A DNA stretch of 64,000 nt. Source: a bacterium (GTDB lineage Bacteria; Zhuqueibacterota; Zhuqueibacteria; Residuimicrobiales; Krinioviventaceae). Below are positions 9,300 through 53,431 of the stretch, in pieces. A program made the position numbers and the translations under genes. How positions within the stretch are numbered: position 1 is the stretch's first letter; every line of letters begins with the position of its first letter. Where the stretch lies: contig CAXXFV010000010.1 of assembly GCA_963674595.2 (NCBI GenBank), positions 13,777 to 77,776 of the forward strand. Direction: 5' to 3'. The notes under the pieces were generated by a model. The model made no database searches and was not told the origin of the DNA. It saw nothing but the letters and a program-made list of their open reading frames with translations.

Positions 9300-9309
9300 A
9301 TAAAAGATT

Positions 9310-9651: not shown

Positions 9652-9703
9652 GTAATTGATCCTTTCTGTGTTTGTTTATTGTGAATTAATAAAGAGATAA
9701 TGT

Positions 9704-9946: not shown

Positions 9947-9967
9947 ATTTAAAATTTCCTTTCTAGT

Positions 9968-10369
9968 TTAATCAACTTTCTCAAAATGAACCAAATCCTG
10001 AAAATCCTGGTCCGTCATAACCTCCGCATCCATATCCCAGTTGCCTCCCCATCTTAGCCTGACACCTTCCAGTTCGGCAACAGCCATCACGACACCCGCA
10101 AAATATATACAGTGTGGAATTTGATAAGAAGCCTTTCCGTTTACCCAGGGTGCAACATCAACAGCCTTGCTTGGTTTTCCGTTGTGTTTACCTTTAGGAT
10201 ATTGTACACGGGATTTGTTTTCTTTATAATATTGATTCTGTTTGTTTTCGTCTCTGTAGCCCTCTAAAACAGCGTGGTCAACTATTTGTAGTACTTTTCT
10301 AAAGACCCTTTGTAAATCCGGATCTGCTGTCGATAAACGTTGTTCCGATATAGGTGAATAAAAATACAT
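9968..10369 (-). CDS. Endolysin, M15 family (L-Ala-D-Glu peptidase-like)
   Basis: EGYR...KH...SKAVDVAP...RWGGNWD...DLVHFE motifs. Confidence 0.88.
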   Translation of the reverse strand: MYFYSPISEQRLSTADPDLQRVFRKVLQIVDHAVLEGYRDENKQNQYYKENKSRVQYPKGKHNGKPSKAVDVAPWVNGKASYQIPHCIYFAGVVMAVAELEGVRLRWGGNWDMDAEVMTDQDFQDLVHFEKVD

Positions 10370-10381
10370 TAAGCCTCCATT

Positions 10382-10702
10382 TTACCAGGTGTTTTTTTCA
10401 AAAATAATGGAATCGATATCCTCGTCATCCGGTGTTGAAACCGGTTCTGTTTCATCCTTTAATTTGATTTTAGCTTCTTCATATTGTGAGAGCATTTTAT
10501 CACAAAAATCTCTCATCCTCCTGATGGCTGTATAACCTTTTATATCAATCGTCCGGGTCGGATCGTCTTTGATGCCCTCTTTGGTATCGATTTTAATTCC
10601 GATCTGGATTCTTAAATCATCGGGATTATTCGTGACAATACCGGTAACAACCGGGTAGACATAATACCCATCAAGCTTTAAACCGAGTTTTTTATAATCC
10701 AT
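10382..10702 (-). CDS. Hypothetical phage protein
   Basis: 106-aa ORF in operon, RBS AAGGGAAG. Confidence 0.6.
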   Translation of the reverse strand: MDYKKLGLKLDGYYVYPVVTGIVTNNPDDLRIQIGIKIDTKEGIKDDPTRTIDIKGYTAIRRMRDFCDKMLSQYEEAKIKLKDETEPVSTPDDEDIDSIIFEKNTW

Positions 10703-10725
10703 TATCTTCCCTTTTCAGATAACAC

Positions 10726-11901
10726 TTAATACATTCTCCCGGAGGTCATAATCCGGTTATTAGAGCCTGAAGTCGCCGCAGCAACAAAAATCCCATTACC
10801 ATAAGCAACGGCCCGCCAGGCGTTATCGGCGGCACTGGCGCGGGACGTCCATGTGATACCATCCGTGGAAGTCATAACGCGGTCACCCGTGCCGCTATTG
10901 GCAACGGCAACGAACAGCCCGTTTCCATAGGTAACGGCCCGCCAGGCATTATCGGAAGCACTGGCGCGATATGTCCAGTAAAGACCCTCCGGGGACGTCA
11001 TAACACGGTCACCGGTGCCGGAAGCGGCAACAGCAACAAACATCCCATTACCATAGGTAACAGCGTACCACTGGTTATCAGAAGCACCCATGCGGGAGGT
11101 CCAGGTAATACCGTCCGTAGAAGTCATAACACAGTAAACAGTACCATTGGAAGCAACGGCAACAAACCGCCCGTTACCATAGGCAACAGAACTCCAGTAC
11201 TCATTATCGGCAGCACTGGCGCGGGACGTCCAGGTAATACCATCCGGCGATGTCATAATTTGGTGGCCTGTACCGGTAGTACTCGCAACAGCAACAAACA
11301 ACCCATTACCGTAGGTAACAGAATTCCAGGAAATATCTGCGGCGCTGGTACGGGACGTCCAAGTAATGCCATCGGGGGACGTCATAACACGGTTACCGGT
11401 ACCACTAGCCGCAACAGCAACAAACAGCCCGTTCCCGTAAGCCACAGAGGTCCAGGAATTATCGGCAGCGCTGGTGCGGGACGTCCAGTAAACACCATCC
11501 GTAGATGTCATGACGCGGTTACCAATCCCGGAAGCAGAAACAGCAACAAATATTCCGTTGCCATAGGCTACAGACCGCCAGGTATTATTCTCCGGGTTAT
11601 TACGTGATTCCCATATAATACCCCGGTCAATGAGATAGCCGGTGAGTTCTAAATTTCCTTGCGGGTCTAAATAAAACGTTTGTGCGCCGGTCGAGTTGTA
11701 GACCATAATGGCCCAAACACCATCCATATTTTTTAATACGATCGAACTTGTATCATAGTCTGCGATAGTCGAATGACTTTTTTCATAATTAGAATCAAAC
11801 CACACCTGACCGTATATTCCCCGGTTATGGGTATAGGTAATCTGGCAAAAAGCCGAAACGCTCATCATGACCAAAATCAACAACATTAACCATTTTTTCA
11901 T
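10726..11901 (-). CDS. Beta-propeller repeat protein with signal peptide (tail/receptor-binding module position)
   Basis: ~7 repeats of WTSRxSAADNxWxSVAYGNGxFVAVAxSGTGxRVMTSxDG (Asp-box-like); N-terminus MKKWLMLLILVMMSVSAFC/Q. Confidence 0.8.
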   Translation of the reverse strand: MKKWLMLLILVMMSVSAFCQITYTHNRGIYGQVWFDSNYEKSHSTIADYDTSSIVLKNMDGVWAIMVYNSTGAQTFYLDPQGNLELTGYLIDRGIIWESRNNPENNTWRSVAYGNGIFVAVSASGIGNRVMTSTDGVYWTSRTSAADNSWTSVAYGNGLFVAVAASGTGNRVMTSPDGITWTSRTSAADISWNSVTYGNGLFVAVASTTGTGHQIMTSPDGITWTSRASAADNEYWSSVAYGNGRFVAVASNGTVYCVMTSTDGITWTSRMGASDNQWYAVTYGNGMFVAVAASGTGDRVMTSPEGLYWTYRASASDNAWRAVTYGNGLFVAVANSGTGDRVMTSTDGITWTSRASAADNAWRAVAYGNGIFVAAATSGSNNRIMTSGRMY

Positions 11902-11930
11902 ACTGTATTCCTTCCTGTTAAATAAAAAAG

Positions 11931-12197
11931 TTATGCTCCAACAAAACCAATTAAATCCGGTCCCTGTATTCGACCGATTTTTATTCCATCTTTATATATA
12001 TCATAAGCCAGTTCGGTATCACCATCCGAGTCCGGTTTATATTCCGACAGGCTGGCCAACTGATTGGCATTTATAGCTCCGGTCGGATAAGCCTGATCTG
12101 CCGGCTGATATTGTATTGTGTGAGTTGTGGTGTCCGGTTTCCCGGTTGTTCCGTGTTTCATGCTTATTATCATGTATTCAGCAGCCCATGTGCTCAT
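11931..12197 (-). CDS. Hypothetical tail-module protein
   Basis: 88-aa ORF tightly packed in operon. Confidence 0.6.
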   Translation of the reverse strand: MSTWAAEYMIISMKHGTTGKPDTTTHTIQYQPADQAYPTGAINANQLASLSEYKPDSDGDTELAYDIYKDGIKIGRIQGPDLIGFVGA

Positions 12198-12199
12198 TT

Positions 12200-12628
12200 T
12201 TAAAATCTCCCTAACGGCATAAAATCAAATGTAAATGTGGCCTGGTCCCCGATTGTTTCGTAAAAAGTGACAATAACCGGTTCTACGGCATTGTATTTCC
12301 CCTCTATCATCGGGATTTTAATATTCGGGTCAACCCGGACAATAACGGATTCCTTTGGACGGTCCTTATAGTCCCGGAACAGATTGATGTAATCCGTGAC
12401 GCCTCGTAAGGTTTCAGCGCTCTGGATATAGGAGGAATCATCCGGGTTGAAAAGATACAACGTGTATTTTTTCCACATGGTCCCGGTCAGATAGATTATT
12501 GGCCGTCTGTTTTGTAGTATCTGAATATCATAGGCCTGGTTCTTTTCAATTTCTAATCTCATGGCCGTCTGATCATCGAATAAAAGCGTACCGCCCGGCC
12601 AGGTTAATTTCATCACGTCATAAATCAT
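12200..12628 (-). CDS. Hypothetical tail protein, probable paralogue of 15754-16140
   Basis: DIQILQNRRPIIYLTGTMW...VIVTFYET resembles EIQRNQQGGPVLFFKGQSW...HVLTFLES. Confidence 0.6.
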   Translation of the reverse strand: MIYDVMKLTWPGGTLLFDDQTAMRLEIEKNQAYDIQILQNRRPIIYLTGTMWKKYTLYLFNPDDSSYIQSAETLRGVTDYINLFRDYKDRPKESVIVRVDPNIKIPMIEGKYNAVEPVIVTFYETIGDQATFTFDFMPLGRF

Positions 12629-15600
12629 TTAATCAAATATCCCGTTTTTAACATATCCCAATAATTCGACGTTAAAACCGTCTGACAATTTAAATCCGGA
12701 TAGTCCGATCAGCTCGACATCAAGTTCAAAACCCGGCTGGTCACTGACCACATGTTGCCGGTCACCCAGTCTGGCCAGAGCACCCAAAAGCGTCAGGTTG
12801 TAACGGACCAGTTTTACTCCCCCTTCCCAAAACCTGTATTTGTTTTGAGCGATAAATTGGGCCGGAGTAGATGAATAGAATCCGGGTAAATAAAGTTCTT
12901 TGGTGCGTTTATAACCGTTGCGGATAAATGACGTGTTCTCAGCATTGGTAGCCGGATAGGTCAAGGTGTATAAAAAAGACTCCTTCGCATAATCAAAGCC
13001 ATAATAGACAATGATCTCATTAACAAAATCCAGCTCCTCAATCTGCGGGTCCGGTATTTTTAAGGCATTGTTTGAATTGATTTCCGGCAAGGTTTCTCCG
13101 GCAGGTGAGGCTTTAAAAATGTGGATATGATGAACGCCCCAGTTATCCTGAAACTCAAACCCGTCAAAATGGGCCGAAATCACTTCAAGGGCCTGTAACA
13201 CGTTCATGGCCGTATCAAGCGTCAGGGAAATATTCAAATTGTTGTCATCACAATAGGAGAACTCGTTATCAAAAGTATATTCGAGTTCATTCCCGGTATC
13301 AACGGCAGCACTTTGTTTGAGCTCAACCTGCGCGGCCATGGAATAAGAGTTTGTCAGGGCTGATACACCGATCTGAACATACGGCGGGTAGCTGCTCAGG
13401 GTATCATTGCCCGTACTGATGACAAGGTCCTCTGTTGTAGTCCCTTCGGTAATAGTAAGAGTCGCTCCGGTCTTTAGCAATGTGGGAACATTAACTTTGA
13501 TCTTGATGGCCGTAGCCCCGGAACCGGCCTTCTCATATAAGGTGCCAACGGCTTTATTTCCGAAATAAGAAGATGACCCGATTAAACCGGTTCCTATCTG
13601 ATTGGCTGTTAATAAATCATAAATGGCCTGTACCGGATTTTCATCAACCCATGAAATCCCGGTTAAAAAGGACAGCTTGTAGCCTTCCAGAATCAAACCG
13701 CCCCAGGCAGAAGATGGTATCTGAATAAATCCGGGTAATGTTAAATTTGAGCCTATATTTCCTGTCGAGCTGATACCCGGACCGGAAATGGTATAATCCG
13801 TATCACTGGTAAATTCGATATTCCATCTTCCGACTTTGCAGCCGTCATAAACCGTTACCAAAGTTCGATCCAGTTCACCGGCTCCGAGAACATTAAACGC
13901 CTGTGAATAGGAACCGTTCTCAACAGCCACGGCAGCCACATTGGGAAGAACACTAATATCACTGGATTGAAAGCTCAATACCTGAAACTCAAAACTCTGT
14001 GAGGCTGTGTCACTGTTCGAGTCCGTCACCTGTACGGTAAAATTAAAGGTCCCTGCCTGTGTCGGTGTGCCGGATAAAATGCCGGCAGTGCTCAATGTCA
14101 AACCGTCCGGCAGAATACCACTGATCACCTGAAAGGTGTAACCGCCCTGACCGCCGGATGCTTTTATGGTTGCCGAATAAGCAGCCCCTTTAACGCCGTT
14201 GGTGACAACGCTTGTGGCAATATCCAGAGCGCCTTCATAAAATCTCATGTAATCGAATTTGCATTGAAAATTGGTAATATTCACGGTACAGGCAAAGATA
14301 CCGACATAATCAATGGTCCCGCTTTGCGTTGAGTTACCCATGTGTATCCATGCGTCACCCTCATTGGCCTTGTAATTAAAAGAGAATGTGCCGGAGCTGT
14401 ACCTGATCTTTAAATAAACTGTGTTGCCGCCCGCATAAGTGGTGATATAATCCAAATTTCCGACAGTCGTTCTTTTGGCAAAAATCCGGGTGCTTAAATT
14501 ATCAAAACCAAAAAGCACATAATCTTTTGATGTTGAAAATTTAACCGCAAGCCCGGCCATGATGCCGGTCCAGTCCGTGTAGGAAATCAAATCCACTCTA
14601 CATTCAAGCACCCAATTTGATGTTGTAATCGGGTCGGCAGGTTCGGTAAAATAGACTCTCGGCCCCTGTTCATAACTGGAATCCAGTTTAAAACTGCCGT
14701 CCAACTCAAAGGTCAAATAACCGTCATTCTCACTAAAAGAAACGTCTGCGCTGTTCGGATTAACAAGGTCCAGACCGGTATACCCCTGACTCTCAACCAG
14801 TTCCGTGTTGGCCGGTTCCGGTTCGACCTCAAGGGTGATGAGCTGGTTTTTTGATTCACCATCATCATTGGTCACTTTTAACGTAAACTCGAATGTCCCG
14901 TCCTCAAGCGGTGTGCCGGATATGATCCCGGTTGCTGTGTTTAAGGTGATACCGGAAGGCAATGCACCGGATTCAATCTCCCATTCGTATGGTGGTAAGC
15001 CCCAGCCACCTTCCCATTCAACAGAGTTTTCCAGGGTGCCGTTTGCGCCGACCCGCATGAGTTTTTTATCGGAATCCCTGTCGGCCCCGGCCACATCCAC
15101 ATCAAGGGCCAGTTTGTTTGTATTTGCCAAAATAAGCGTTGTTCTGCCGTCCTGACAAACCGGCGGCGCGATGATCCGGCCACGGTAACAGGAAATCCAT
15201 GTTTCACAACCCACAAACTGCAGTTTGATCAAAAAGTCTTTTTTGGAATAACTCTGCGTATAAACCGGCGTTCCGGCATCATAGGAGTTTACTAAAGTAT
15301 CGATGGGAAGGATTGTCCGGGATAAGGCCGTTCCACTGAAATCATTGACAATGACAACCTCTTGATTTGTGCCGTCATTTATGATTAAAGTTTCTCTCAC
15401 CTGCGGGCTGAATCCTTTTTTAGATGTTACGGTAAAAGAAGACGCCCCGGAACTTACGCCACTGCCCAGCTCACCATATCCCTGGTAAAACAAACCGTTC
15501 GGGTTCAACGGATTTAAAAATCCGTCCGGATCATTTAAAACCATCGTGATCTCCTGTATCATGGTCTGGTCCGAATAGGCGATATCCAGCTCCCGTTCAT

Positions 15601-30454: not shown

Positions 30455-31858
30455 CTATAAACCCCTCGTATCTATATCAGCATAAGAAACAGATACTTTT
30501 TCACCCAACAGGAAATCGATGGATTGTTTGGCCAGATGTCGCTTTTTCCGGTTGACGAAATTTTGAGCTACCCGTTTAATAGAGGCATCTTTATTGATCT
30601 TGGATACAAATCCCAAACCAGCCACATATTCAACAGCTTCCTGTTCTTCCATCAGTTCATGGTCCAGTAGCCATTCCAGGGCCTTTAATTCCTTTTCCAA
30701 TGCAGAAGCATTTAAGTGTCTGGCTCGTGCCATTTCGGTCTCATCAAACAGTCCCACCGGGTTCCATTCATGGTACCATTTTGCACCGGTATACCCCTCA
30801 AACATTAAAAAGGTGTTGGTGACTTTTTCTATGACAGAATCAACAGAATCCCGTCTCTCTTCAATACTGGAAATCAAAAGGTCTTTCTGGTCTTCACTCA
30901 TTTTGAAATTAGAGTTCCAGTTGTACAATCCGAAACTAAAAGGAGGTAATTCTGTCCGGGCGATGATCTGCTCTATAATGATCCTGGAAGGGATTTCCAT
31001 ATCCATTAATTGAGCACCTTCACCCAAAACTTTAACACTCACTTTGGATTCACTGGGAACAGCTCCGCCAATATCCCGGACCTGACCGCGTTTGCGGTCT
31101 TTGTTCACATCTTCCAATTGGGTCAACAGCTTATCAGCAGAATCTTTCAGGTCAGTATAATTTGTACCTCTCCCTCCTTCAATCAGTAATACAAAAGTCG
31201 GATCACCGATCCTGACAACAGCGTTCTTGATGGATTGCTGTATTCTTAACAGTATCTCGGCAACAAAAGGCATGGAATTAAACAGACTCACACCCTGAGG
31301 ATGGCCGTCTCTTAAATCAAATGTCAAATACTGAACAAATTCCGGGTGTTCTAATATAACAGGTTTTGCAGCATCATGAGGTAAGGAAGCCAGCCATAGT
31401 CTACCGTCTTTCCGGATAAAACGAACCTTGGAAGCATCACCGACTTTTAACCGGTCCACACCATTCAAACCGGCAAAAGGAACGGTCTCAAAGACACCAT
31501 AACCATTGGCCAGAGCAGAATCATAGACTTGTTGTAAACACCCATGTAATCCCTTGTGAAAATATCCGACCCTGATCTCTTTTTTGAAGTTGTTCAAGGC
31601 TTTTAAGACATTCGGATTATCGCAACGGTATTCAAAATCACCGATCAGTCTCCGGAGCTTTAATACAGCTACATCTAAAATCGGGATGGCTTCACGAAGA
31701 ATATTATAAATCTTTAGATTGTACCTTAACGGCTCATATCCGTTTAAATATGTCTGAAATGGGCTGTCACTTGCAGAATAAAGCTGGGATTTAACAATAA
31801 CGTTGTTGGATTGTTTCGGTGGGAAATATTTATTAAGATTGAATTTTGGAAGGTTCAT
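30455..31858 (-). CDS. Portal protein
   Basis: 467 aa; LREAIPILDVAVLKLRRLIG, HPQGVSLF, LPPFSFGL; synteny. Confidence 0.85.
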   Translation of the reverse strand: MNLPKFNLNKYFPPKQSNNVIVKSQLYSASDSPFQTYLNGYEPLRYNLKIYNILREAIPILDVAVLKLRRLIGDFEYRCDNPNVLKALNNFKKEIRVGYFHKGLHGCLQQVYDSALANGYGVFETVPFAGLNGVDRLKVGDASKVRFIRKDGRLWLASLPHDAAKPVILEHPEFVQYLTFDLRDGHPQGVSLFNSMPFVAEILLRIQQSIKNAVVRIGDPTFVLLIEGGRGTNYTDLKDSADKLLTQLEDVNKDRKRGQVRDIGGAVPSESKVSVKVLGEGAQLMDMEIPSRIIIEQIIARTELPPFSFGLYNWNSNFKMSEDQKDLLISSIEERRDSVDSVIEKVTNTFLMFEGYTGAKWYHEWNPVGLFDETEMARARHLNASALEKELKALEWLLDHELMEEQEAVEYVAGLGFVSKINKDASIKRVAQNFVNRKKRHLAKQSIDFLLGEKVSVSYADIDTRGL

Positions 31859-31867
31859 TAACTGCCC

Positions 31868-31904
31868 ATATATAGAACGTACTCAAACAACACGTTCTAT
31901 ATAT
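31868..31904. promoter_or_regulatory. Perfect 13-bp inverted repeat upstream of the portal gene
   Basis: ATATATAGAACGT-11bp-ACGTTCTATATAT, 10 bp before the ATG. Confidence 0.6.
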
Positions 31905-31990
31905 AGCAGAATAGGGGTAATTAATCAATATTTTGTGGGTAATTAACCCATAGCTAGTGATAAGGCAGTTTCTCTTGGATGGAATTGCAA

Positions 31991-32116
31991 TAAAAAAACG
32001 GACCCATGAGAGACAATGCACTATGGAAGGTAGGTTCGGGATACTCCCTAGTCTTCGGTTAGTACAATGCAGTCATGTAGTCCGTTAATTCATAATCCCT
32101 CTCTGGTGATTAAGTT
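31991..32116 (-). ncRNA. Candidate structured small RNA / attenuator
   Basis: Starts after promoter 32151-32123; closing stem AACGGAC..CATGA / TCATG..GTCCGTT followed by a T-run. Confidence 0.4.
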
Positions 32117-32122
32117 AATTAA

Positions 32123-32169
32123 ATAATACAAACTTTATTAAACCCGTGCAAGCAGATTTTAAAGAATTT
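32123..32169 (-). promoter_or_regulatory. sigma70 promoter, third copy of the array promoter motif
   Basis: AAATTCTTTA..TTGCAC-17bp-TATTAT, sharing the upstream AAATTCTTTA and pre -10 TTTG with the promoters at 6226-6272 and 38324-38370. Confidence 0.7.
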
Positions 32170-32262
32170 ATCAAAGTATATTCGATTCAGACTATTATAA
32201 ATGTATCACCTTTATAAAAATTCTTAATATCCTGGTATGTGAATTGTTTATACAACAAAATA

Positions 32263-32718
32263 TTAAGTTATCATTAATGATTTATCATCAATAATTAATT
32301 TACCATTTTTACATGCTGGACAATTAAATTTTTCAATGTATCCCGGATAATAAATCATTTCATTCTTGCAGGTTGGACATTTGATAGCAGAGAAACTAAA
32401 ACATTCAGTAGGTAATTTTGTCTTTTCAGGATTATCTTTTTTATAATCTTTGTAATTTTCTCGATATTCTTTTTTAATATTTTCCAAATTCATTTCCCAT
32501 GGATTATAATTCGCTTCAATAAACTCGACAATTATCAACTTTTTGTATTCAACACAATGCGGACAATAAGCATTTATATACAATCCATCTGCTTTCTGAT
32601 TACCAACCGGATGTGGTAAAGCTATCATATTACCAAATTGGAATTTGAATTCATGGGGACCAGAGACGGAAATTTTAAAATTGCAGTCGACACAGATGAA
32701 GCTTATGTAAGTTGCCAT
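32263..32718 (-). CDS. Zn-ribbon (4x CxxC) accessory protein
   Basis: CVDC, CPHC, CPTC, CPAC; AT-rich; GTTATAA upstream at 32821-32827. Confidence 0.7.
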   Translation of the reverse strand: MATYISFICVDCNFKISVSGPHEFKFQFGNMIALPHPVGNQKADGLYINAYCPHCVEYKKLIIVEFIEANYNPWEMNLENIKKEYRENYKDYKKDNPEKTKLPTECFSFSAIKCPTCKNEMIYYPGYIEKFNCPACKNGKLIIDDKSLMIT

Positions 32719-33117
32719 ATTTTATCCTATCTTTTCAAATGTTTTCATTGACAGTATAAAAAGGTTAATTGAAAGGAGGATAAATAAATACCCAAATATA
32801 AATAAAAAAATCTTCTCAATTTATAACGAGGTGCATAATGCTTTTCACCAAATAGACACAATGCCATTCCAGTTAACTTGAATGTTTTCTTAAACCAATT
32901 CCAACAATTAGGAGTATTGCACCTAATAAAATTTTTAACACGTTAATTAGTACTTCCATTACTTTATAATTCCAAATCTAAATAATTTTATTTACTATAC
33001 AAATTCTGCAATATTGATTAAGGTCAAAAGTAGTGTAAAAATCTAAAGTCTTAAAACACAATAAGGTTTTACGAATATGAATTAACATGCATGAAATGGT
33101 ATTTTGCTTCATTAACT

Positions 33118-33381
33118 TTAATCATTGTTTTCTTCATCTTCATCCAGTACATGCCTTCTAAAAATGCTAACAGAATCTTGAGAATCTATATTGGGATCAT
33201 TAACTAATTTATCAATTTCTGAATCAGAAGCTTTTAAACCTACCTTGAAAGAAATAGTAGACCAAATTAATAATAAAACACATATTGTCTTTGCAACAAT
33301 ATTGTCAAATATTAATAAAATTTAAGTAGCAATTAAAACTTTAATTATTCCTACAGCTATTGGCACATATCTTGGTTTCAT
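33118..33381 (-). pseudogene. Small membrane-protein pseudogene
   Basis: MKPRYVPIAVGIIKVLIAT*ILLIFDNIVAKTICVLLLIWSTISFKVGLKASDSEIDKLV...; in-frame TAA at 33324-33322; RBS AAGGA. Confidence 0.55.
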
Positions 33382-33521
33382 TTTATATACAATCCTTTGG
33401 TTAAAGATAAATTATCTTGAGAAATCAAGTTTTATTGATTCCTATATTATTTTACATAAAGCCATATAATAACAAGCTATTTCATCAAATGATTCGAATA
33501 ATAATAATTTCATAAAATATA

Positions 33522-33962
33522 TTACGTGGAGAATTGTGTTGCAATTTCAGAAGAATAGCTAGCTATCTTAGTCCAGTAAACAATCCAGCAGATTAATCCA
33601 ATTATAAATATAACAGTACCAATTGTTGGGATAATACTGCACAAACCTAAAACACACCACGCTATGCCAAGTGATTTTCCTGGATTTGGTTCTTTTATAA
33701 TGTTTCTACGCTTAAATTCGTTATCTAAGGAAGTAGCAATTCTTGAGACAACTATAAACTGCCAGATAAGATTGAAAAACGGAATCAACATTAACCATAC
33801 CTGGCTTGGATTCATAGCTCGACTCAATGGATCACATCTCTCGAGGCATTTCTGCAAAGTTAGTAGAAAAAAAATTAATGGTATTAAACTAATTAGTAGA
33901 AAAAATATAATAATTAATTCAGGTCCACTTGGGGACATCATTGCGAAGATAGATGCTATCAT
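33522..33962 (-). CDS. Membrane protein (DUF4328-like)
   Basis: MNPSQVWLMLIPFFNLIWQF motif, 4 TM segments, RBS AAGGAG. Confidence 0.7.
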   Translation of the reverse strand: MIASIFAMMSPSGPELIIIFFLLISLIPLIFFLLTLQKCLERCDPLSRAMNPSQVWLMLIPFFNLIWQFIVVSRIATSLDNEFKRRNIIKEPNPGKSLGIAWCVLGLCSIIPTIGTVIFIIGLICWIVYWTKIASYSSEIATQFST

Positions 33963-34068
33963 TTATATTCTCCTTTTTTTGAAAATTATAATTGCCAATT
34001 AATTTCATTTCCAGCGAATTTCTATATTTTTTGATTTAGTAAATCACTTTGCTAAGCGGTCAAAAAAA

Positions 34069-34221
34069 ACATAACGTTTCATTGCTTTTTCCTTATTGAT
34101 CATACAAAGGTGCAGTAGAACCGCACCGTACAACTTGAGAAGTAAGCAAAATTAGATGCTGACATTAAAATTTCTTGATTTCATCGTCCGCCCTGCGGTC
34201 AGCTGCATTAAAAGTTAGCAC
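34069..34221 (-). other. attC-like site (3' arm degenerate)
   Basis: GTGCTAAC-ttttaATGCAGCTGACCGC... to GTTATGT. GTGCTAAC is complementary to GTTAGCAC (35162-35169) upstream of the same gene. Confidence 0.7.
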
Positions 34222-34267
34222 AATATACTATAGTTAATGTTTTATTATTATATTAAAAAACTATATA

Positions 34268-35152
34268 TTAAACAGGATCTTGCTTTTCCCAATACTTGCA
34301 GGATTGAGGAAACAAAGACCGCTTAATAATTTGAGTTGAAAATTGTTTTTCCCAAACGGCTTTAGTTTTTTTATGAATTTTGCAAGGGATATATTCAATA
34401 AAAAGCATGACTGGGTACATCCATAATTCACTTTCATACTTTTCAATTTTACGATAATGTTTGCAAGTCTTACACCACATTAACTTGTCTAAATCCGTTT
34501 GATGTGCAAGGCCGGGATTATAGTCAGCTCCAATAATATTACCAAGCTTTTGCATCGATTTAATATACTCTTTTGCATCATTAAATTTTTGATTTATCTC
34601 GATTGAACTGTAAGTCTCTTCAGTGTTTACTCTACTAACACTATTCTCATTTTTTATTTTCAACAAAAAATAAGCGGCTAATATCAATCCAATTACAATG
34701 AATATGCTTAATATTGCTGCTCTAAAATTATATTTGCTTGCCGAATTATTTATTTGATTTAATTCATTCTTTGCTTCTTTTAATAGTTTTCGATGATTTG
34801 CTAAGCTTTGCGAGTACAAATTCAAAACATCTTTTTCAGCTTGTTTTTCAGCTTCGCAAATTTCAAAAGCTAATTTTCTTGATGAGTCCGGTGAAATTCC
34901 TTGCTTCGAAAATTCAAAAGTCATTTCCTTTATTTTTCTATTATAATCTTTTGTTGCTATCTTCATATTAAAATCGTCTATAGATTTTTCGAAATAATTA
35001 ATATTTTTACTCAATGCTTCAACTCTTTCAGACCAATATTTTTTGGGATTAATTGATTTTTTTATAAAATCATCAGGGACAAATAAATTATACACAATAA
35101 TTAATATTATTGAACTTATAATTATATGTTTTAACGATATTTTTATTTTCAT
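34268..35152 (-). CDS. Two-TM coiled-coil protein with C-terminal Cys cluster, gene cassette
   Basis: TM-coiled coil-TM-WCKTCKHY..PC..C; starts 9 nt after GTTAGCAC. Confidence 0.7.
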   Translation of the reverse strand: MKIKISLKHIIISSIILIIVYNLFVPDDFIKKSINPKKYWSERVEALSKNINYFEKSIDDFNMKIATKDYNRKIKEMTFEFSKQGISPDSSRKLAFEICEAEKQAEKDVLNLYSQSLANHRKLLKEAKNELNQINNSASKYNFRAAILSIFIVIGLILAAYFLLKIKNENSVSRVNTEETYSSIEINQKFNDAKEYIKSMQKLGNIIGADYNPGLAHQTDLDKLMWCKTCKHYRKIEKYESELWMYPVMLFIEYIPCKIHKKTKAVWEKQFSTQIIKRSLFPQSCKYWEKQDPV

Positions 35153-35318
35153 ATTAATTCCGTGCTAACATAGTTTTAATATATTCAGACAGTCATATTT
35201 ACAGTGAAAACATTTAGTTTCATGGTGTAGTTTTACTGCATTTTTTAATTGTATTTTTATTTAGATTTAAGAATGGGGCGGTAGAACTGGCACCCTATTT
35301 CTGAGCAAAAAATATTAT

Positions 35319-35924
35319 TCATTTCAATGAACTTCTTGATGAAATTACCTCAATACGTTTATAATATTCTTCTTCTGTCTTTAATGATAGCAACAGAAAT
35401 ACAAAGAAACCTAAAAAATTAATAGCAAAAACAATAACAACCTGATAACAACATTTGTTAAATATCAAATAAATCAAATTAATTAAAAACATTAAAAAAT
35501 TTGCACCGCTTAAATTCCATCGCATATGATTTAAAATATTATAGCGTTCAATATACTCGTAATATGCATTCGTATTTTCATTAAATATAGCAACTTCTTT
35601 ATTTAAAATATCTTCTATTTTATTATCAATTGAATATTTCAGTATTTTTTTAATTTTGCTTTCAACTTTTGTTTTTTCAAAAACAACATACATTAATGCG
35701 TATGTCAAATGACCAAATGTATATGAAAATAGTAAAAGTATAATAAAAAGATATGGAAATTCTTTCCAATAATTAAATATAGATTGTTCATAGTAAAAAT
35801 AATCGATGAAAAATAACTCAAACAGGATAAGGGAGCCGCTTAAAATATAAACTTGTATTTCACGAGCTATATGTTTGAATGCCTTTATTAGTTGTTCCGT
35901 GATATTTGTCATTGCTTCTTCCAA
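35319..35924 (-). CDS. Four-TM accessory membrane protein
   Basis: Hydrophobic segments; AT-rich; GTTGGGT upstream (35953-35959). Confidence 0.7.
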   Translation of the reverse strand: MEEAMTNITEQLIKAFKHIAREIQVYILSGSLILFELFFIDYFYYEQSIFNYWKEFPYLFIILLLFSYTFGHLTYALMYVVFEKTKVESKIKKILKYSIDNKIEDILNKEVAIFNENTNAYYEYIERYNILNHMRWNLSGANFLMFLINLIYLIFNKCCYQVVIVFAINFLGFFVFLLLSLKTEEEYYKRIEVISSRSSLK

Positions 35925-36015
35925 TTCACTCTAGGTTGATTTATATTTTTGAACCCAACATTGTCACCAGGGTTTTGTTAAATGGTGGTTTATAAACACA
36001 TATCAAGCCTACTAT

Positions 36016-36294
36016 TTACCTACTTTTATCTTTTAAAATTACGACCAATCCAATTGTAATAAGGCATATTGAAATAAGTTGAGCATAAAAAGTTGGAGTA
36101 TGCAAAAAAACAATATTTGTAACTCCACTTGCTGTGCTTTTAACTTTGAAGATAGCAAATGGTTTGTACCCCATAGGTACATTTTTATCACCATAATCTA
36201 CATAACATGGTGGCACCAAAAATGAGAGTATAATCAGTAGTATGCCCATGAGAATTACTATCTTCTGTTTGGAATTCAAATTCATATGTTTCAC
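36016..36294 (-). CDS. Small two-TM protein
   Basis: LNSKQKIVI...LVPP...; followed by collapsed attC-like ATTTAAC-17bp-GTTGGGT. Confidence 0.65.
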   Translation of the reverse strand: MKHMNLNSKQKIVILMGILLIILSFLVPPCYVDYGDKNVPMGYKPFAIFKVKSTASGVTNIVFLHTPTFYAQLISICLITIGLVVILKDKSR

Positions 36295-36414
36295 CTTTTT
36301 AAATACCTGCTTACATAGTTCATTATATTTATATATCCGTATTTACTGTGGCGAGATATTGTCATTTGTTCCAAAAGTAAATCGCTTCCACCTCAATTAT
36401 ATCTTATTGAAGTG

Positions 36415-36538
36415 GTCTAACATTTGGCATAATCGGTCGCTAACAAACCGATATTTTATTTGTATTTTGTTTTTTACCAACTTTTAAACTGCTCAAAATG
36501 GACCGCTGAAGCGGTCCGCGTTCAGCCCGTTGTTAGCC
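36415..36538 (-). other. attC integron recombination site
   Basis: GGCTAAC-aacgggCTGAACGCGGACCGC...GCGACCGATTATGCC-aaat-GTTAGAC, starting 4 nt after the stop of 36543-37505; near-canonical RYYYAAC/GTTRRRY architecture, 124 bp. Confidence 0.85.
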
Positions 36539-36542
36539 ACTA

Positions 36543-37505
36543 TTACTCACCAATTATCGTTTCGAAAGGTAATGTAGCTCTTATAGTTGCCTTTAACTCA
36601 TTTAATGCTAAATAAATATTATCGAGATCCCAAATAATAGTTGTATGGTGATTTGTATCAAAATGTGGTTTTGTTTTAATATCATCAAAAGCTTTCTTTT
36701 CACATAAATATATTACTGGTTTTCCAAGACCCTCAGCATATCCTGCTTCCCAATATGCACCATTATTATTATGGGAAAGGTCTGCAAGTAAAATTCTTGA
36801 TTTCCTGATTTCTACTCTTAACTGATTATCAATTAATCCTGCTTGTAACACATCTTTTAGTATTCGTAATTCAAAGCCTGTTTCTTCAACTGCTGGGACG
36901 AAATATTCTCTAAATATTTTTATCATCTTCTCATCATATTGCATTGCCATAAAGGATATTTTACTATCAGACCCTTTTATTAATATTTCATGATACTTTT
37001 CCCAACCATTAAAAGTCAGACCAAACTTGCATATAGGACCATCCTCACGTGCATCACCACATTTTTTGAAATATATTAACCCTCTATTTGAGAGTTCTGA
37101 AGAAATATAATCTACATCTGAAGGAAACTTAGCACCAATTATTGAGGTAACATGTCTACCAATCCTTTCAATGTTTTCAGCATAATGTGTTAATGTCGAA
37201 CCTAAAAATAAAATCAGATTTTCTGATTGCTCATGTAATGTAGGTAAATTAATCTCATATGGTATTTTACTGAAAATATTAACAGTAACTTTTACAGGTT
37301 TATTTTCTGATTGATTATTCCTTATCCAATAACTTAATACCCACCTCCAGTCTTCGTGTGGATCATCAGGATCTATCATTGCTTTAATTTTTTTTTCTAA
37401 TTGAAATTTCCCGCATCTTGGGCAATCGATGGACAAAACATTATTTACAATATCATCGTAAATTTTATTAAGAAGTGTTGATTTACATATAAGGCATTTC
37501 TGCAT
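36543..37505 (-). CDS. Zn-finger / wHTH / nucleoside 2-deoxyribosyltransferase(TIR)-like protein, putative defence effector
   Basis: CLIC..CPRC; SFMAMQY...IRKSRILLADLSHNNNGAYWEAGYAEGLGKPVIYLC...PHFD. Confidence 0.8.
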   Translation of the reverse strand: MQKCLICKSTLLNKIYDDIVNNVLSIDCPRCGKFQLEKKIKAMIDPDDPHEDWRWVLSYWIRNNQSENKPVKVTVNIFSKIPYEINLPTLHEQSENLILFLGSTLTHYAENIERIGRHVTSIIGAKFPSDVDYISSELSNRGLIYFKKCGDAREDGPICKFGLTFNGWEKYHEILIKGSDSKISFMAMQYDEKMIKIFREYFVPAVEETGFELRILKDVLQAGLIDNQLRVEIRKSRILLADLSHNNNGAYWEAGYAEGLGKPVIYLCEKKAFDDIKTKPHFDTNHHTTIIWDLDNIYLALNELKATIRATLPFETIIGE

Positions 37506-37700
37506 TCAACTTCTCCTATTATAACAATGTTAATTAATTATATGAACCAATTGCCCCTATAATGCTAATTACCAGACATACAGAATTGGTATTGAATTAT
37601 CATAACAGCTAAGCCAGAATTTGATCGCTTATGAGCTATGCCATATTTTGCGGTACAACGGCAAGCAAAAATAGCATTAAGAAATAAAACACTTAAATAT

Positions 37701-37925
37701 TTATGAACAAGCTCGAATAATCAATATTACAATAAGTATTGTAAATGCAAATTTTGCGAAACTCCAAATTCCCATTAACAAATTTAGACCTGCTGCCATT
37801 ATTGCACCAACTAATCCATCTTCTTGATATGATTCTAAAACCATCATAATTGCAATAAATATACGCCATAATACTACAATACCAATGTAAACAAGAGCTA
37901 ACCAAAATAATATTTGACCGATCAT
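37701..37925 (-). CDS. Small hydrophobic membrane protein
   Basis: 74 aa, two TM segments, RBS AAGGA. Confidence 0.6.
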   Translation of the reverse strand: MIGQILFWLALVYIGIVVLWRIFIAIMMVLESYQEDGLVGAIMAAGLNLLMGIWSFAKFAFTILIVILIIRACS

Positions 37926-38138
37926 TTTAGATTCCTTTTTAAATCAGTAAATAAGGATAGTTATTGAAATAAATATTAGTGCAATAACACATAGTCAAGC
38001 TACCTTTATCAAGCAGCAAGTATTTTCTAATATTGGAAGATTTTGTTTATATGTGCTTTCCACAGATTTATAAAGAAACAATTTCAAATACATACATTTT
38101 GCTAGGAAAATATCTTGATTAATATTGAACATAAACTG

Positions 38139-38370
38139 AACCAACCCAATAATTTTGACCGGGAAATAACAGGAATATGACTATCTAACCGACGCAATTC
38201 TTTCCTCGTAACTGTTTTTACTTCCCATATATTAATTTTATGTGGTAATTCAGTTAAAGGCTTTCAGGACTCCCATTTCCGACCATATTGTCCTAAAAAA
38301 TCTTCCTTTTACCTGACAAAATAATGATACAAATTTATAATTTTTCCCGCAAGTTGTTTTTAAAGAATTT
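38139..38370 (-). promoter_or_regulatory. Array leader copy 2: sigma70 promoter, uORF, candidate attI-like GTT site
   Basis: TTGCGG(38352-38347)-17bp-TATCAT(38329-38324); uORF MVGNGSPESL* 38286-38254; GTTATTT 38170-38164; GTTGGTT 38145-38139. Confidence 0.7.
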
Positions 38371-38396
38371 AATTTTTTTTTCTCTTCAAAAATATA

Positions 38397-38422
38397 AAAG
38401 CCCCGCATCACTACGAGGCTTG
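38397..38422 (-). terminator. Intrinsic terminator after the terminase operon
   Basis: AAGCCTCG-tagtgatg-CGGGGCTTTT on the minus strand. Confidence 0.6.
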
Positions 38423-38452
38423 ACAAACGATTAAGTCCCCCCTTCTAAACCC

Positions 38453-38647
38453 TCAATACTTGTAATAAACATCTCTTAAATAACTCACAGAAAACCCGCT
38501 CTTTCTAGAGACCTCCCGGATTGCATCACTTGCCGGACTTTTAGAGCCACTCTTTTCAAATACTTTACTCATTTCGTAAATATGGTTTTTTAATATCGTC
38601 AATCGTTTCTTTGTCGACTTTAACTTTGGATTTATTTGTACTGGCAT
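38453..38647 (-). CDS. Small HTH-like protein (possible late regulator)
   Basis: AIREVSRKSGFSVSYLRDVYY helix-turn-helix pattern. Confidence 0.55.
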   Translation of the reverse strand: MPVQINPKLKSTKKRLTILKNHIYEMSKVFEKSGSKSPASDAIREVSRKSGFSVSYLRDVYYKY

Positions 38648-38668
38648 ATTATTCCTTTCTATTAAAAT

Positions 38669-40348
38669 TTATCTGGCCTTTCCAGCTCTGCTCCACACCA
38701 TCGATCCCCCGATAGTTCCACCAATTTCTTCACTGATTAAAGAATATGCTGCTGCATGAAGTAAGTGGTCTCCACTGATGGGCTTGCTCCAAACCTGACG
38801 ATTTGTGTTTGGGTCAAAATACCTAACTGGTAATGTAAAATGGTCCAATAACTCACCGTCAGATACTTTTCTCCAGTTTCTCGGAAAGATAAATCCATCC
38901 TGTTCACTTTTTAAAATATTCTTTAAAACACGATCAAGCGCTTGTGTCCGGTCAAGAGCGATAATTTTATTATCAATGTCAACTGTCTGATCTTGCAAGC
39001 TCCCCCCTTTTTTATACCAACACAGCCATACTTTACCAGGTCGGGATGCTTGCAGTTCTTTGGCTTTTGTGGTATCATATTCACCATCGATTGTACATAC
39101 TTCGACATTATATTGATCAATTAAAAAATCCAGTGTGTCCCAATCATAAGCTGCGCCACAAGCAACCAGTCGTTTTCTTCCATTATATCGTTCCCAAATG
39201 AAATAGTGATGCCGTCCACCCGGATCAACTCCCATAAAAGTATTGTTTCCTGTCGATGGCATGAGATAATCATCTTTACATTTTTCCATCAAAGCTTCAG
39301 TTATTTTACTTCCCTTTGGAGCAAAAGCACGGCCCAGGTTTGAGTTGTGAAACAATTGTGTCTTTGTGGTATCTCCCAGTGCTTCCTGAAATTCATTCCA
39401 CAATTCCAAAAGATCAGTATCAAAACTGATCAACCTTGAAAATCGGTAACCGACTCTTGGTTTATCCGGATATTTAGCAACCCATTCACCGACCCAGGGT
39501 TCATATATAATCTTTTCACATTTATCACAGATGATTTGAGGCTTTCCCTTTTCTTCTTTAATGACTTTATAAATCAAACCTTCAGAATCAACCTGACGAA
39601 CAACATGTTTAAACCAATCCAGTTCAATGTATTTATTACAATGCTGACACCGGGTCAGGTATCGGGATTGATTTGTAGACCGGTATAAACCATCCACACC
39701 ACAATTTTCAACAGTGGGTCGTGATGAATAGCGGAGCATTTTATATTCAGATGCTTTCAACCTGTCTTTTAACTGGTCCAGGTTGTCCATGTCTGATTCA
39801 TCATATTCATCAACAAAAGCGATATCTACAGGATTTTCTACAAACTCTGTCCTTGAATTCGATCCCACAAACCGCATGGTCCCTTTACCATAATGTTTCT
39901 GTAAAACACTGTCACTTTCACCGCCTTCATCCAAATGACTTTTGTACAGGGGAACATAACTAAGAAGTTTGTCAATCCGGTCATGTACAAAGTTTGATCT
40001 CAGGGTTTGGTTCGGCATGACATACAGACCACGTAATCCACTGGAAACATAGTGGAGCAATTCAACTAAAAGACGCTCCGTAATTCCGACCTGTACCGGC
40101 TTGATAAACACCATAAACTGAGGCATTTCTGTTTTGGGTTTTATTCCTTTGGCGATGTCATTGAAAAAGCCTGGCGGAGCATATAAATCCTGCAGCCAGT
40201 CCCGATTGATAAAAGACATGCGCTTGAAATGCCGGTTTAAATGATGTTCTCTGGCCAACCCGAACACCGGAGCCAGGGTATTAATACTCTCTCTGAATTT
40301 TACTAACTGAGTTAATGTCAATGATGTTAAATACTCAGGAGTGACCAT
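38669..40348 (-). CDS. terL: Terminase large subunit (lambda GpA-like)
   Basis: Walker A-like KPVQVGITE, Walker B AFVDEYD, SSRPT, CQHC/CDKC, nuclease GVDPG...DHLLHA; start MVTPEY. Confidence 0.9.
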   Translation of the reverse strand: MVTPEYLTSLTLTQLVKFRESINTLAPVFGLAREHHLNRHFKRMSFINRDWLQDLYAPPGFFNDIAKGIKPKTEMPQFMVFIKPVQVGITERLLVELLHYVSSGLRGLYVMPNQTLRSNFVHDRIDKLLSYVPLYKSHLDEGGESDSVLQKHYGKGTMRFVGSNSRTEFVENPVDIAFVDEYDESDMDNLDQLKDRLKASEYKMLRYSSRPTVENCGVDGLYRSTNQSRYLTRCQHCNKYIELDWFKHVVRQVDSEGLIYKVIKEEKGKPQIICDKCEKIIYEPWVGEWVAKYPDKPRVGYRFSRLISFDTDLLELWNEFQEALGDTTKTQLFHNSNLGRAFAPKGSKITEALMEKCKDDYLMPSTGNNTFMGVDPGGRHHYFIWERYNGRKRLVACGAAYDWDTLDFLIDQYNVEVCTIDGEYDTTKAKELQASRPGKVWLCWYKKGGSLQDQTVDIDNKIIALDRTQALDRVLKNILKSEQDGFIFPRNWRKVSDGELLDHFTLPVRYFDPNTNRQVWSKPISGDHLLHAAAYSLISEEIGGTIGGSMVWSRAGKAR

Positions 40349-40739
40349 TTTCACCCCTGTTTTTAAAAATAGCCAGCTCCTCAGTAAGAATATCAAGAGC
40401 CTTGTCTTTGGTCATCTCTTTCGTTTCTACAGGACCACCATCAGCACCGGTAATTTCCTGTCTCCGGGAATATCCCCGGTCCTTACCCTTTGTCGACAGG
40501 ATAAACTTAATGGCCCACGGCTGAGCATTCAGAGCAGCATCTTCAAGTTTCAATTCAACTTTGTCAAGGGTTCGTTCTTTTTCTTCCTCGAAGACAGCTT
40601 TTACTGTTGCATACTTTTGTATATAGTTATATATAGTTTTACGTTCACAACCTAAGGCCATAGCTGCATAAGTAGCGTTGCCCCGCGTTTTCCTTAAAGC
40701 TTCAATAACCTGTTTTGTCGTAAAAATATTTTCTGCCAT
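40335..40739 (-). CDS. terS: Terminase small subunit
   Basis: N-terminal HTH; AIKFILSTKGKDRGY..RQEITGADGGPV. Confidence 0.85.
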   Translation of the reverse strand: MAENIFTTKQVIEALRKTRGNATYAAMALGCERKTIYNYIQKYATVKAVFEEEKERTLDKVELKLEDAALNAQPWAIKFILSTKGKDRGYSRRQEITGADGGPVETKEMTKDKALDILTEELAIFKNRGENGHS

Positions 40740-52152: not shown

Positions 52153-52359
52153 ATGCGGGGAGATGATATTTTAATTCAAAATGAAAATAATGCTTTTGTA
52201 AAGGGGCGAGAGACAGACACAAAAACAAACAGTTATGGTTACAAAGATGAAATTGTCCCAGGTGAAATAGAATACAAAATTGTACAAATCGAACATGATA
52301 ACGCTACAACCGAGTATGGCACAGTCGTTGTTGCAAACGAATATAAACTTAAACATTAA
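52153..52359 (+). CDS. Small protein resembling an isolated Fn3-like module of secreted proteins
   Basis: FVKGRETDTKTNSYGYKDE...EYKIVQIEHDNATTEYGTVVV resembles the FVxGxGT...YSFxD...YYRLKQIDxDG module. Confidence 0.4.
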   Translation: MRGDDILIQNENNAFVKGRETDTKTNSYGYKDEIVPGEIEYKIVQIEHDNATTEYGTVVVANEYKLKH

Positions 52360-52384
52360 CTTAAAAAATAATCTAGGTAAAATA

Positions 52385-53431
52385 ATGGCATTTATAAGAC
52401 AGCGAAAAGGTAAAAAAGGAACGTCATATTACATAGAATATTACATTGACGGCAAAAAGTACACCCATACTATAAGCTATAAAGAAAATAAAACACTAAA
52501 AGAAGTTAAACGAATAGCTGCGGAACTGGAACTAAAAGCCCAACCGCCGGATTTTGATAATTTGACCATAAAACAGTTTTTTGATATTTGCCTTCAAAAC
52601 ATGGAAAGTAATATTGATGAAAATACTTCAAAAAATTTGAAAAAAATAATACAAATGTTTCTATTATTTTCAGGGGAATCAATTAAAGTAAATTTAATTA
52701 ATCATAATTATATAGATGAATATAAAGACTGGCTTTATAAAAAAAGAAAAGAAAACTCTATTGATATTGAAAAAACAAAAAGAGGTATCAATACAGACCT
52801 TTCTTTTATTAGATGGATTTTTAATTACGGATACAGAAAAGATTTTATCAAAAACAAAATATTTGAAAAAGTTGATTTTTTTAAAACGCAAGAATATGTC
52901 CCCGATTTTTTAACAAAAAATGAATCAAGGAAACTTTACAAAAATTTACCAAAAACGAAAATCAGACTTTATTTTATCATATTAAAATATACCGGAATGC
53001 GTAGAATCGAAGTTTTGAGGCTTCAAGGAAAAAATATTGATTTAGAAAATGGTTTGATCCTTTTGGAAAAACATAAAAATAGACGACCCACAATGAAGCC
53101 GATACACCCGACATTAAAAAGAATATTTATATCATGGAAAGTTTTATCTGGCGATCAAGAACAAAAACTATTTGATTATCATAAAAATACTATTACTTTG
53201 ATGTTCAGAAGGGCACTAGTAAAAGCAGGACTGGGACATAAAAAAGCGTCCGTCCACATAATGAGACACACATACGCAACAAGAATTATAGAGCACCACC
53301 AAGATGATTTTGATAAAGGGGAAAGACTGGCCCAGGAATTACTTGACCATACAAACAGAAAATCAACAAAAATATATACGCATATTGTAAAAAAAGTTTT
53401 GCAGCAACAGCAAAGCAAAGTTAAATTTTAA
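52385..53431 (+). CDS. Phage tyrosine integrase
   Basis: TGMR, HIMRH, LDH, TKIY catalytic residues; arm-binding-like N-terminus MAFIRQRKGKKGTSYYIEY; no IntI-type insertion seen. Confidence 0.92.
   Translation: MAFIRQRKGKKGTSYYIEYYIDGKKYTHTISYKENKTLKEVKRIAAELELKAQPPDFDNLTIKQFFDICLQNMESNIDENTSKNLKKIIQMFLLFSGESIKVNLINHNYIDEYKDWLYKKRKENSIDIEKTKRGINTDLSFIRWIFNYGYRKDFIKNKIFEKVDFFKTQEYVPDFLTKNESRKLYKNLPKTKIRLYFIILKYTGMRRIEVLRLQGKNIDLENGLILLEKHKNRRPTMKPIHPTLKRIFISWKVLSGDQEQKLFDYHKNTITLMFRRALVKAGLGHKKASVHIMRHTYATRIIEHHQDDFDKGERLAQELLDHTNRKSTKIYTHIVKKVLQQQQSKVKF

Follow-up and report, generated by a model that had tools for sequence, protein, structure and literature searches.

The 64,000-nucleotide stretch analyzed here (the window; positions 13,777 to 77,776 of contig CAXXFV010000010.1, assembly GCA_963674595.2, from a bacterium of the Krinioviventaceae) carries a prophage in which an island of accessory genes separates the genes for the large terminase subunit (TerL) and the portal protein. 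We examined this island, which the initial annotation had read as an array of integron gene cassettes, together with the corresponding intervals elsewhere in the genome (the sister copies; the contigs are abbreviated C3, C9 and so on, the window lying on C10). The genome is a metagenome-type assembly of 37 contigs with 5.06% contamination. In the window, PHROG matches to an integrase, RecT-like and RecE-like proteins, a replication initiator, a major head protein and a tape measure protein, combined with TerL and the portal (Pfam, PHROG), identify a tailed temperate prophage. The features of the island and its borders are, from TerL to the portal:

38669-40396 (-): TerL, 575 aa, upstream border of the slot (PF05876, 83 bits; PHROG 675, terminase large subunit, E 2.6e-73)
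38453-38647 (-): 64-aa open reading frame (ORF), kept in the sister copies including C3 (ORF list, alignment)
38136-38370 (-): promoter and conserved leader that open the island; TTG..TAnnTTTG-like boxes, a Shine-Dalgarno (SD)-like ACGAGGAAGAGA followed by TTG, then ATTCCTGTT
37701-37925 (-): 74-aa hydrophobic ORF, no family match (ORF list, family searches)
36543-37505 (-): 320-aa ORF, the gene of the sole attC cassette; N-terminal Cys-rich ribbon and C-terminal nucleoside 2-deoxyribosyltransferase (NDT)/TIR-like domain
36415-36538 (-): attC; R'' GGCTAAC, R' GTTAGAC, 5' arm near the consensus, 3' arm eroded
36016-36294 (-): 92-aa membrane-like ORF, no family match (ORF list, Pfam)
35950-35990 (-): conserved 35-nt motif TTAAC..AACCC..N13..GGGTT, previously taken for a 'collapsed' attC, not an attC by model
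35319-35924 (-): 201-aa multi-pass membrane-like ORF, no family match (ORF list, Pfam)
34268-35152 (-): 294-aa ORF within a bracket at 34214-35169, with GTTAGCAC upstream and GTGCTAAC downstream
33522-33962 (-): 146-aa membrane ORF, weakly matching DUF4328 (below the cut-off)
33119-33381 (-): pseudogene; a TAA in frame after codon 19 interrupts a frame of 86 codons
32263-32718 (-): 151-aa Cys-rich, zinc-ribbon-like ORF, matching only sub-threshold ribbon families
31990-32175 (-): conserved right border, small-RNA-like; a promoter-like box, then some 110 nt that close with a long hairpin, GGACTACATGA...TCATGGGTCC, and a T run
30455-31858 (-): portal, 467 aa, downstream border of the slot (PHROG 30703, portal, E 1.3e-58)

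The island occupies 6.3 kb of the 6.8-kb TerL-portal interval, and its GC content per 500 nt is 0.23-0.33, compared to 0.38-0.46 in the flanks. Seven intact ORFs (74, 320, 92, 201, 294, 146 and 151 aa) and one pseudogene, all on the minus strand, make up its coding content, and a spacer of 90-800 nt follows each ORF. The description of the island as an AT-rich block of eight co-oriented accessory ORFs, one of them a pseudogene, was therefore confirmed by the GC content, the ORF list and the TerL and portal matches. A terminator scan located a terminator-like hairpin at 38398-38421, after the 64-aa ORF. Rfam, which contains no family for attC, returned no matches at the gathering threshold across the window and none at E<=1 for 31800-38700, and a sigma-70 promoter scan gave no excess over expectation (43 found, 46.6 expected).

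We searched for attC sites with home-made covariance models, the E-values of which come from a shortened calibration. The models were built exclusively from sites outside the window, namely attCs adjoining intI in three relatives and attCs from sister loci of the same genome; R1 is the seed model (2 sites), R2 was built from 15 sites and R3 from 22. All three models ranked the same site, 36415-36538, at the top of the window. R1 gave it 13.6 bits (E 0.16; next best 10.6 bits), R2 25.2 bits (E 1.1e-4; next best 14.5 bits, outside the island) and R3 24.5 bits (E 1.1e-3; next best 10.8 bits), all over the whole window, making it the sole significant match in 64 kb with R2 and R3. The exact coordinates of the canonical attC proposed earlier were thus recovered by models trained without any window sequence. 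In a sequence-only search of the 6.6-Mb genome that paired matches of arm hidden Markov models (HMMs), the site ranked third, with two training sites ahead of it and all other non-training sites below it. It lies on the strand of the 320-aa ORF and begins 4 nt past the stop codon of that ORF. In the minimum free energy fold as in the centroid fold, GGCTAAC pairs with GTTAGAC in a basal stem of 6 bp, and the 5' arm fits the consensus, both bulge positions included. Five non-standard pairs mark the 3' arm; the inner stem is partly missing, with a local hairpin in its place. A perfect local hairpin followed by ATTTT gives the site a terminator-like look.

The training sites are textbook attC hairpins, with a basal TAAC/GTTA stem, an internal loop of 2-3 nt and two stems carrying one 5'-arm bulge each. 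With filters off, R1 re-found its two sites strand-specifically. In the 22-site alignment 92.8% of cells were paired, compared to 63% when shuffled and 29-40% when slid, and 20 of the 26 pairs changed on both sides; fitting the alignment to the structure inflated these figures. In non-attC background of the same genome (about 116 kb), noise scored no higher than 14.5 bits, and the reverse strands of strong attCs scored 23-29 bits. Two simpler scores did not serve for detection. A scan for TAAC...GTTA by duplex energy returned 289 matches genome-wide at <=-16 kcal/mol, with the window site indistinguishable from noise, and an anchored arm-alignment score gave the window site 6.75, compared to 11.5 and 14.75 for two sister attCs, with many noise matches at 6-8. 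MAFFT alignments of whole attCs (A1-A4) misaligned the 3' arms and were excluded from the models. The genome-wide R2 search scored 150 of 1630 candidates and returned 3 training sites, and has no bearing on absence elsewhere.

The remaining sites proposed for the island stayed at noise level, so that the covariance-model check of the window upheld one site and none of the others. Searching the island alone gave nothing besides 36415-36538 above 8.1 bits (E 1.6). The second proposed attC, 34069-34221, had no model match at E<=10 in the island-only search and no arm-HMM match; its fold (z -0.72) was equaled by 44 of 200 shuffles, and a terminator-like hairpin lies within it at 34109-34127 (-). 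None of the spacers tested folded better than shuffled sequence (z -0.72, +0.75, -0.41 and +0.14). The 'collapsed' attC at 35953-35983 reached 7.8 bits (E 1.9, island), a score that random TAAC...GTTA pairs also attain and that it owes solely to its TAAC/GTT ends. Its 35-nt motif has three copies in the genome (window, C13:65946-65979 and C25:9147-9180), two of them inside phage slots. As for the orphan GTT boxes noted near several starts, GTTA occurs within 30 nt upstream of 2 of the 7 starts, and random placement gives two or more with a probability of 0.33.

The bracket around the 294-aa gene fared better. Both GTTAGCAC (35169-35162) and GTGCTAAC (34221-34214) exist as described, each unique in the window, and they mirror the R'/R'' rule that we read in cassettes of the sister copies (7/7 and 6/7 on C3, 7/7 on C9). 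A GTT-anchored inverted 8-mer of this kind is expected at 0.0024 per ORF (0.24% of random island segment pairs), or 0.017 for seven ORFs. The support for a cassette is suggestive only, and the 294-aa gene is possibly a former cassette. The confirmed cassette itself breaks the rule; GGCTAAC predicts GTTAGCC upstream of the 320-aa ORF, where GTTATAA is found. With one attC for seven ORFs, the reading of the island as an integron cassette array did not hold, nor did its assignment to the clusters of attC sites lacking an integron integrase (CALINs), which are defined in the available text of 10.1101/2024.07.02.601686 by at least two attC sites without intI; the second and third claimed sites failed, and the window has one. 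The proposed decay of older attCs is a conjecture, for which the bracket is the one suggestive sign.

The initial annotation had supposed that a host integron integrase captured the cassettes in trans. We found one bona fide intI in the genome (TIGR02249, 453.7 bits, cut-off 265); the other matches (13 in total) fell below the cut-off. None of 14 control genomes had a match above it, and 25 of 61 related genomes, the present one included, did. The gene lies at C3:115823-116767(-), directly downstream of a TerL 97% identical to that of the window. The genome therefore does hold an integrase that might act in trans, and it resides in the same slot of a sister prophage remnant, not in an unrelated host integron. 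The window has no TIGR02249 match above the cut-off (the integrase at 52280-53431 scores 55.8 bits against 265), and neither an intI remnant nor an attI was found in the island, where tblastn of IntI gave noise only. We considered the 17 codons after the leader TTG as a possible intI remnant and rejected them, as they are part of a leader with 58 copies and the IntI homology starts at residue 16. Among 80 public loci with relatives of this IntI, the closest are 72% identical (an unclassified metagenome-assembled genome, MAG) and 69% identical (a candidate division KSB1 MAG).

Six TerL-portal intervals, five of them outside the window, were defined by TerL and portal homologues:

Window slot (C10): 6.8 kb, one attC
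C3c slot: 4.7 kb, intI and two cassettes
C9 slot: 6.9 kb, two attCs
C25 slot: about 8.3 kb, one attC
C3a slot: 16.9 kb, no attC
C26 slot (TerL 63% identical): 6.1 kb, no attC

A seventh element, on C3, retains a portal fragment only. In the C3c slot the promoter-leader, intI (330 aa), a GTTAGCG junction, a 419-aa gene, an attC, a 322-aa gene and a second attC follow one another on one strand. The attCs score 59.8 and 32.8 bits, the latter being a non-training site, and the R'/R'' pairs read from the sequence are GTTAGCG/CGCTAAC (7/7) and GTTAGGT/ACATAAC (6/7). The cassette products are a CHAP-like protein sorted by the type IX secretion system (T9SS; 419 aa) and a DUF5677 protein (322 aa). Judged by its sequence, the C3c slot represents a complete integron, with intI, two attC cassettes and a putative attI-like junction, GTTAGCG, which matches the first R'' at 7/7 positions. 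In the C9 slot one attC comes after a histidine kinase/response regulator and the other after a class-3 lipase; the third item of cargo is a PAS histidine kinase. The cargo of the C25 slot is a 792-aa TIR protein, then HamA and a DEAD-box helicase, then an attC of 36.4 bits (non-training). At positions 4074-8103 of the stretch C25:5200-13700, HamA (282 aa) overlaps a 1048-aa DEAD/ResIII helicase, with the attC directly after. The pair looks like a two-gene Hachiman-type system packed as one integron cassette in a phage slot. Cassettes with defense genes are thus present in the sister slots, where HamA and the helicase precede an attC and a TIR protein also occurs.

Homology between the window and the sister copies gives out where the leader ends (38141-38168) and in the small-RNA-like unit (32115-32175). 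None of the cargo is shared among the six intervals, which range from 4.7 to 16.9 kb, all comparisons being within one genome. The predicted turnover of the TerL-portal interval was therefore observed, the sister content being completely different; the breakpoints lie at the leader end and the small-RNA-like unit and not, as had been predicted, at the GTT boxes. Since the breakpoints coincide with the conserved flanks, exchange through flanking homology is at least as good an explanation of the turnover as IntI. The breakpoints favor flank-mediated homologous exchange for replacement of the whole cargo, and the ORF-attC units favor IntI-mediated movement for single genes. With unrelated cargo between conserved phage genes, the TerL-portal slot has, on present sequence comparisons, the properties of a phage accessory hotspot.

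The leader at the upstream border is a unit of 230-290 nt with 58 copies in the genome by nhmmer, including window 6041-6272, 17 copies on C29 and 7 each on C13 and C26. An alignment of 31 copies shows a Bacteroidota-like promoter, an ATCAG...CTGAT stem and the SD-like ACGAGGAAGAGA followed by TTG; ATTCCTGTT is a possible anti-SD. The leader has no Rfam match, and RNAalifold on the 31 copies gave only one 5-bp stem. It precedes very different genes, among them genes for TIR proteins, caspase-like proteins, response regulators and secreted proteins as well as intI, and on C29 several small genes stand in a row, each with its own copy. The leader may have a shared regulatory role or represent a modular promoter cassette, and the island genes would be expressed from it. 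The small-RNA-like unit at the opposite border, just upstream of the portal gene, is common to the sisters C9, C25 and C3 and has no Rfam match.

We looked for defense genes in the window and found no known system above threshold; six ORFs had no family, and only sub-threshold TIR/NDT-like matches were obtained. The 320-aa cassette protein scored 25 bits against PF05014 (cut-off 28.8) and 18 bits against a PADLOC TIR effector, so that its domain is seen only below thresholds, and it matched PHROG 16139 at E 3e-20. The protein is a member of a large uncharacterized family, with 4691 homologues. A PDB search found no relative. Relatives were present in 1 of 124 other genomes of the class and at two metagenome loci (35-36% identity). 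No attC-like arms were seen downstream of the distant homologues at three loci (the two metagenome loci and L148). A defense role for the 320-aa protein is a guess.

We interpret the locus as a phage accessory hotspot with a second role as docking site for an integron, of which the window copy would be a single-attC remnant, and give this reading a probability of roughly 0.68. The earlier observation and its integron interpretation are in this sense partly supported. The island would be the variable cargo of a fixed terL-portal accessory slot in a family of temperate tailed phages, a slot opened by the promoter-leader and closed by the small-RNA-like unit and a terminator. The same slot would also be home to an integron, in one sister with intI, an attI-like junction and two ORF-attC cassettes in the same direction, in other sister copies with one or two ORF-attC cassettes and no intI. 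The window copy has no intI, one recognizable cassette (the 320-aa NDT/TIR-like gene with its attC) and six other ORFs without a detectable attC. Two routes of turnover may have operated, namely homologous exchange via the conserved flanks, for which the phage encodes RecE/RecT-like proteins, and IntI-catalyzed insertion or loss of single cassettes; the one IntI of the genome could act in trans on the window attC.

A number of observations weigh against this interpretation. Only 1 of the 7 window ORFs has an attC, and that attC is weaker than those of the sisters (25 bits compared to 33-62 bits). Its fold z is -1.63, with 15 of 200 shuffles folding as well, compared to -2.9 to -3.6 for three sister attCs, and the site is possibly inactive. 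No attC occurs in two of the six slots, the 16.9-kb C3a slot and the distant C26 slot. The C3c element, which bears intI, is no intact prophage; a cut at codon 229 truncates its portal gene, which there abuts a degenerate CRISPR (clustered regularly interspaced short palindromic repeats) repeat, so the integron may have entered a dead prophage. Two attCs on C29 (57747-57881 and 62258-62334; 33.3 and 21.0 bits) are not part of any TerL-portal slot. They stand in a region with many leader copies, one of them after a leader and a 135-aa ORF, and indicate scattered attC units beyond the phage copies. Pattern scans of genome and viral contigs found no relatives of the phage outside this genome, so that all comparisons are within a single metagenome-type assembly; among 60 related genomes, TerL had one weak match (27% identity). 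In the flanks examined at 80 public loci of IntI relatives, TerL, portal and leader were absent from all.

Phage DNA also meets CRISPR repeats in more than one place. In three sister elements (C3:111845-111925, C3:66393-66465 and C9:149577-149600) the phage DNA, cut in portal codon 229, starts right after a degenerate terminal CRISPR repeat and occupies the place of a spacer, and arrays with 37-nt repeats adjoin (C3:108317-111845 and C3:65800-66300). The junctions possibly arose by recombination of an anti-portal spacer with the protospacer in a resident prophage. Between pieces of CRISPR array at C3:100132-101402 lies a 1.27-kb element with 98.6-100% identical copies on C3, C8, C18 and C29, which is probably an active insertion sequence (IS). 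Elsewhere in the window, a 391-aa ORF at 10726-11901 contains internal tandem repeats (10741-11588; about 72-77% identity), and contig C22 holds a 92%-identical copy of window 9267-13886 that spans this stretch.

The whole island could instead be a cassette array built one gene at a time by IntI, in which every attC but one has decayed past recognition. Such a history would fit the co-oriented ORFs with a spacer behind each, the R'/R''-like bracket of the 294-aa gene (P about 0.017 for seven ORFs), the resemblance by eye of the sequence past GTGCTAAC to the 5' arm of the local attC consensus, and the confirmed attC, which is itself eroded and demonstrates that erosion occurs here. It is at odds with the failure of three models and two arm HMMs to find anything more in the island, even at E<=10, with spacers that fold like shuffles and GTT boxes at chance level, with the broken R'/R'' rule at the confirmed cassette, and with an island that has no attI or intI remnant. 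We consider this array unlikely. An ordinary moron or defense hotspot with no functional link to integrons, in which 36415-36538 is a terminator region with a chance likeness to an attC or a dead fossil that came in along with its gene, appears less probable again. The terminator-like hairpin and ATTTT within the site would agree with it, as would a global fold only marginally better than shuffles, the 23-29 bits reached by reverse strands of strong attCs, and the missing arms downstream of the distant 320-aa homologues. The match is nevertheless strand-specific and 4 nt past a stop codon, it reached E 1e-4 and 1e-3 across the whole window with independent models, and no other non-training arm pair in 6.6 Mb ranks above it. 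Since much stronger attCs occur in three sister slots, and intI in one, a chance match in this very slot is unlikely. A dead fossil attC is possible, and is compatible with a hotspot that doubles as a docking site.

Least probable, to a degree that we regard as very small, is an assembly artefact in which the sisters are strain variants or mis-joins, so that intI and the island may come from a single polymorphic locus or from different organisms. The number of contigs and the contamination would allow it, and the flanks are 91-98% identical repeats at which short-read contigs break. Three of the copies, however, share one 390-kb contig, in which unique sequence, CRISPR arrays and an IS lie between them. 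In a public assembly of short reads, which may come from the same sample, one 6425-nt contig equals 32058-38482 with 0 differences; the depth was 6.7 on this island contig and 25-35 on the repeated flanks, about 4-5 times higher, as several copies predict. Short-read contigs are incapable of showing rare excision joints. A phage slot with integron parts would stand even if the copies were alleles of one locus. A bolder form of the docking-site reading is that the phage family owns the integron. The leader promoter, intI and attI would then be native to the slot and virion-borne, sister lysogens would pool cassettes such as Hachiman via one IntI in trans, and the window copy would have lost intI and kept one cassette; we put this forward tentatively, as a possibility at well below even odds.

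Integrons in phages have been published before. The available text of PMC9892861 lists, for 10,705 phage genomes, 3 complete integrons, 1 In0 and 17 CALINs, describes a complete integron together with a CALIN among the tail, capsid and terminase genes of the cryptic Shewanella prophage M16-3, and attributes the Vibrio phage cases to excision at chromosomal attC sites and the P1 case to class 1 integron mosaics. The present locus resembles those cases, as far as that text describes them, in having intI, attCs and cassettes in temperate phage or prophage DNA and attC clusters without intI. It differs from them in that the parts occupy one fixed terL-portal slot in several sisters with different cargo, in the co-orientation of intI with the cassettes, in the uncultivated, T9SS-bearing host lineage, and in a window copy with only one attC. 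Under the IntegronFinder classes, as given in the accessible parts of 10.1101/2024.07.02.601686 and PMC9024848, C3c would be a complete integron, C9 a CALIN, and the window and C25 single attCs (SALIN), assigned here by home-made models and not by IntegronFinder. Complete integrons are mentioned in Chlorobi and Ignavibacteriae in the part of PMC9024848 that was available. Among the literature matches listed, no title or abstract described an integron in a terminase-portal hotspot, which is not proof of absence.

Inverted-orientation integrons, with intI transcribed toward the cassettes, have been described for Treponema denticola. The C3 sister slot and the relative G009 likewise have attC cassettes downstream of intI on the same strand, whereas the relative G040 has the classical divergent layout. 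The P2/P4 phages carry defense hotspots. Integron cassettes have been presented as stores of anti-phage defense (10.1101/2024.07.02.601686 and 10.1101/2024.07.02.601719, in their available portions) and variable defense hotspots have been reported in phages (10.1101/2024.10.15.618418, available portion). The slot is like both in the C25 HamA and helicase as an attC cassette, the TIR protein in the same slot, and the variable cargo between conserved phage genes, and the window is unlike the defense-cassette stores in that its genes include no known defense system above threshold.

What the present case adds is the fixed slot in the packaging module, the range of sister copies in one genome from a complete integron to no attC, and the co-oriented intI. 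Taken alone, the window is a modest result, an ordinary accessory island with one eroded attC, the rest of which shows no integron signature. With its sisters it forms a natural series in one genome, in which the same slot holds a complete integron, two attCs, one attC (twice) or none, with Hachiman as a cassette. According to the available text of PMC9892861, phage integron parts have so far been rare, scattered cases. Should virions carry the slot, phages would transfer cassettes and an integrase between hosts, and lysogens could shuffle anti-phage genes. If the phage family owns the integron, it would be a phage-encoded device for swapping defense and accessory genes, and not a bacterial one that is occasionally picked up.

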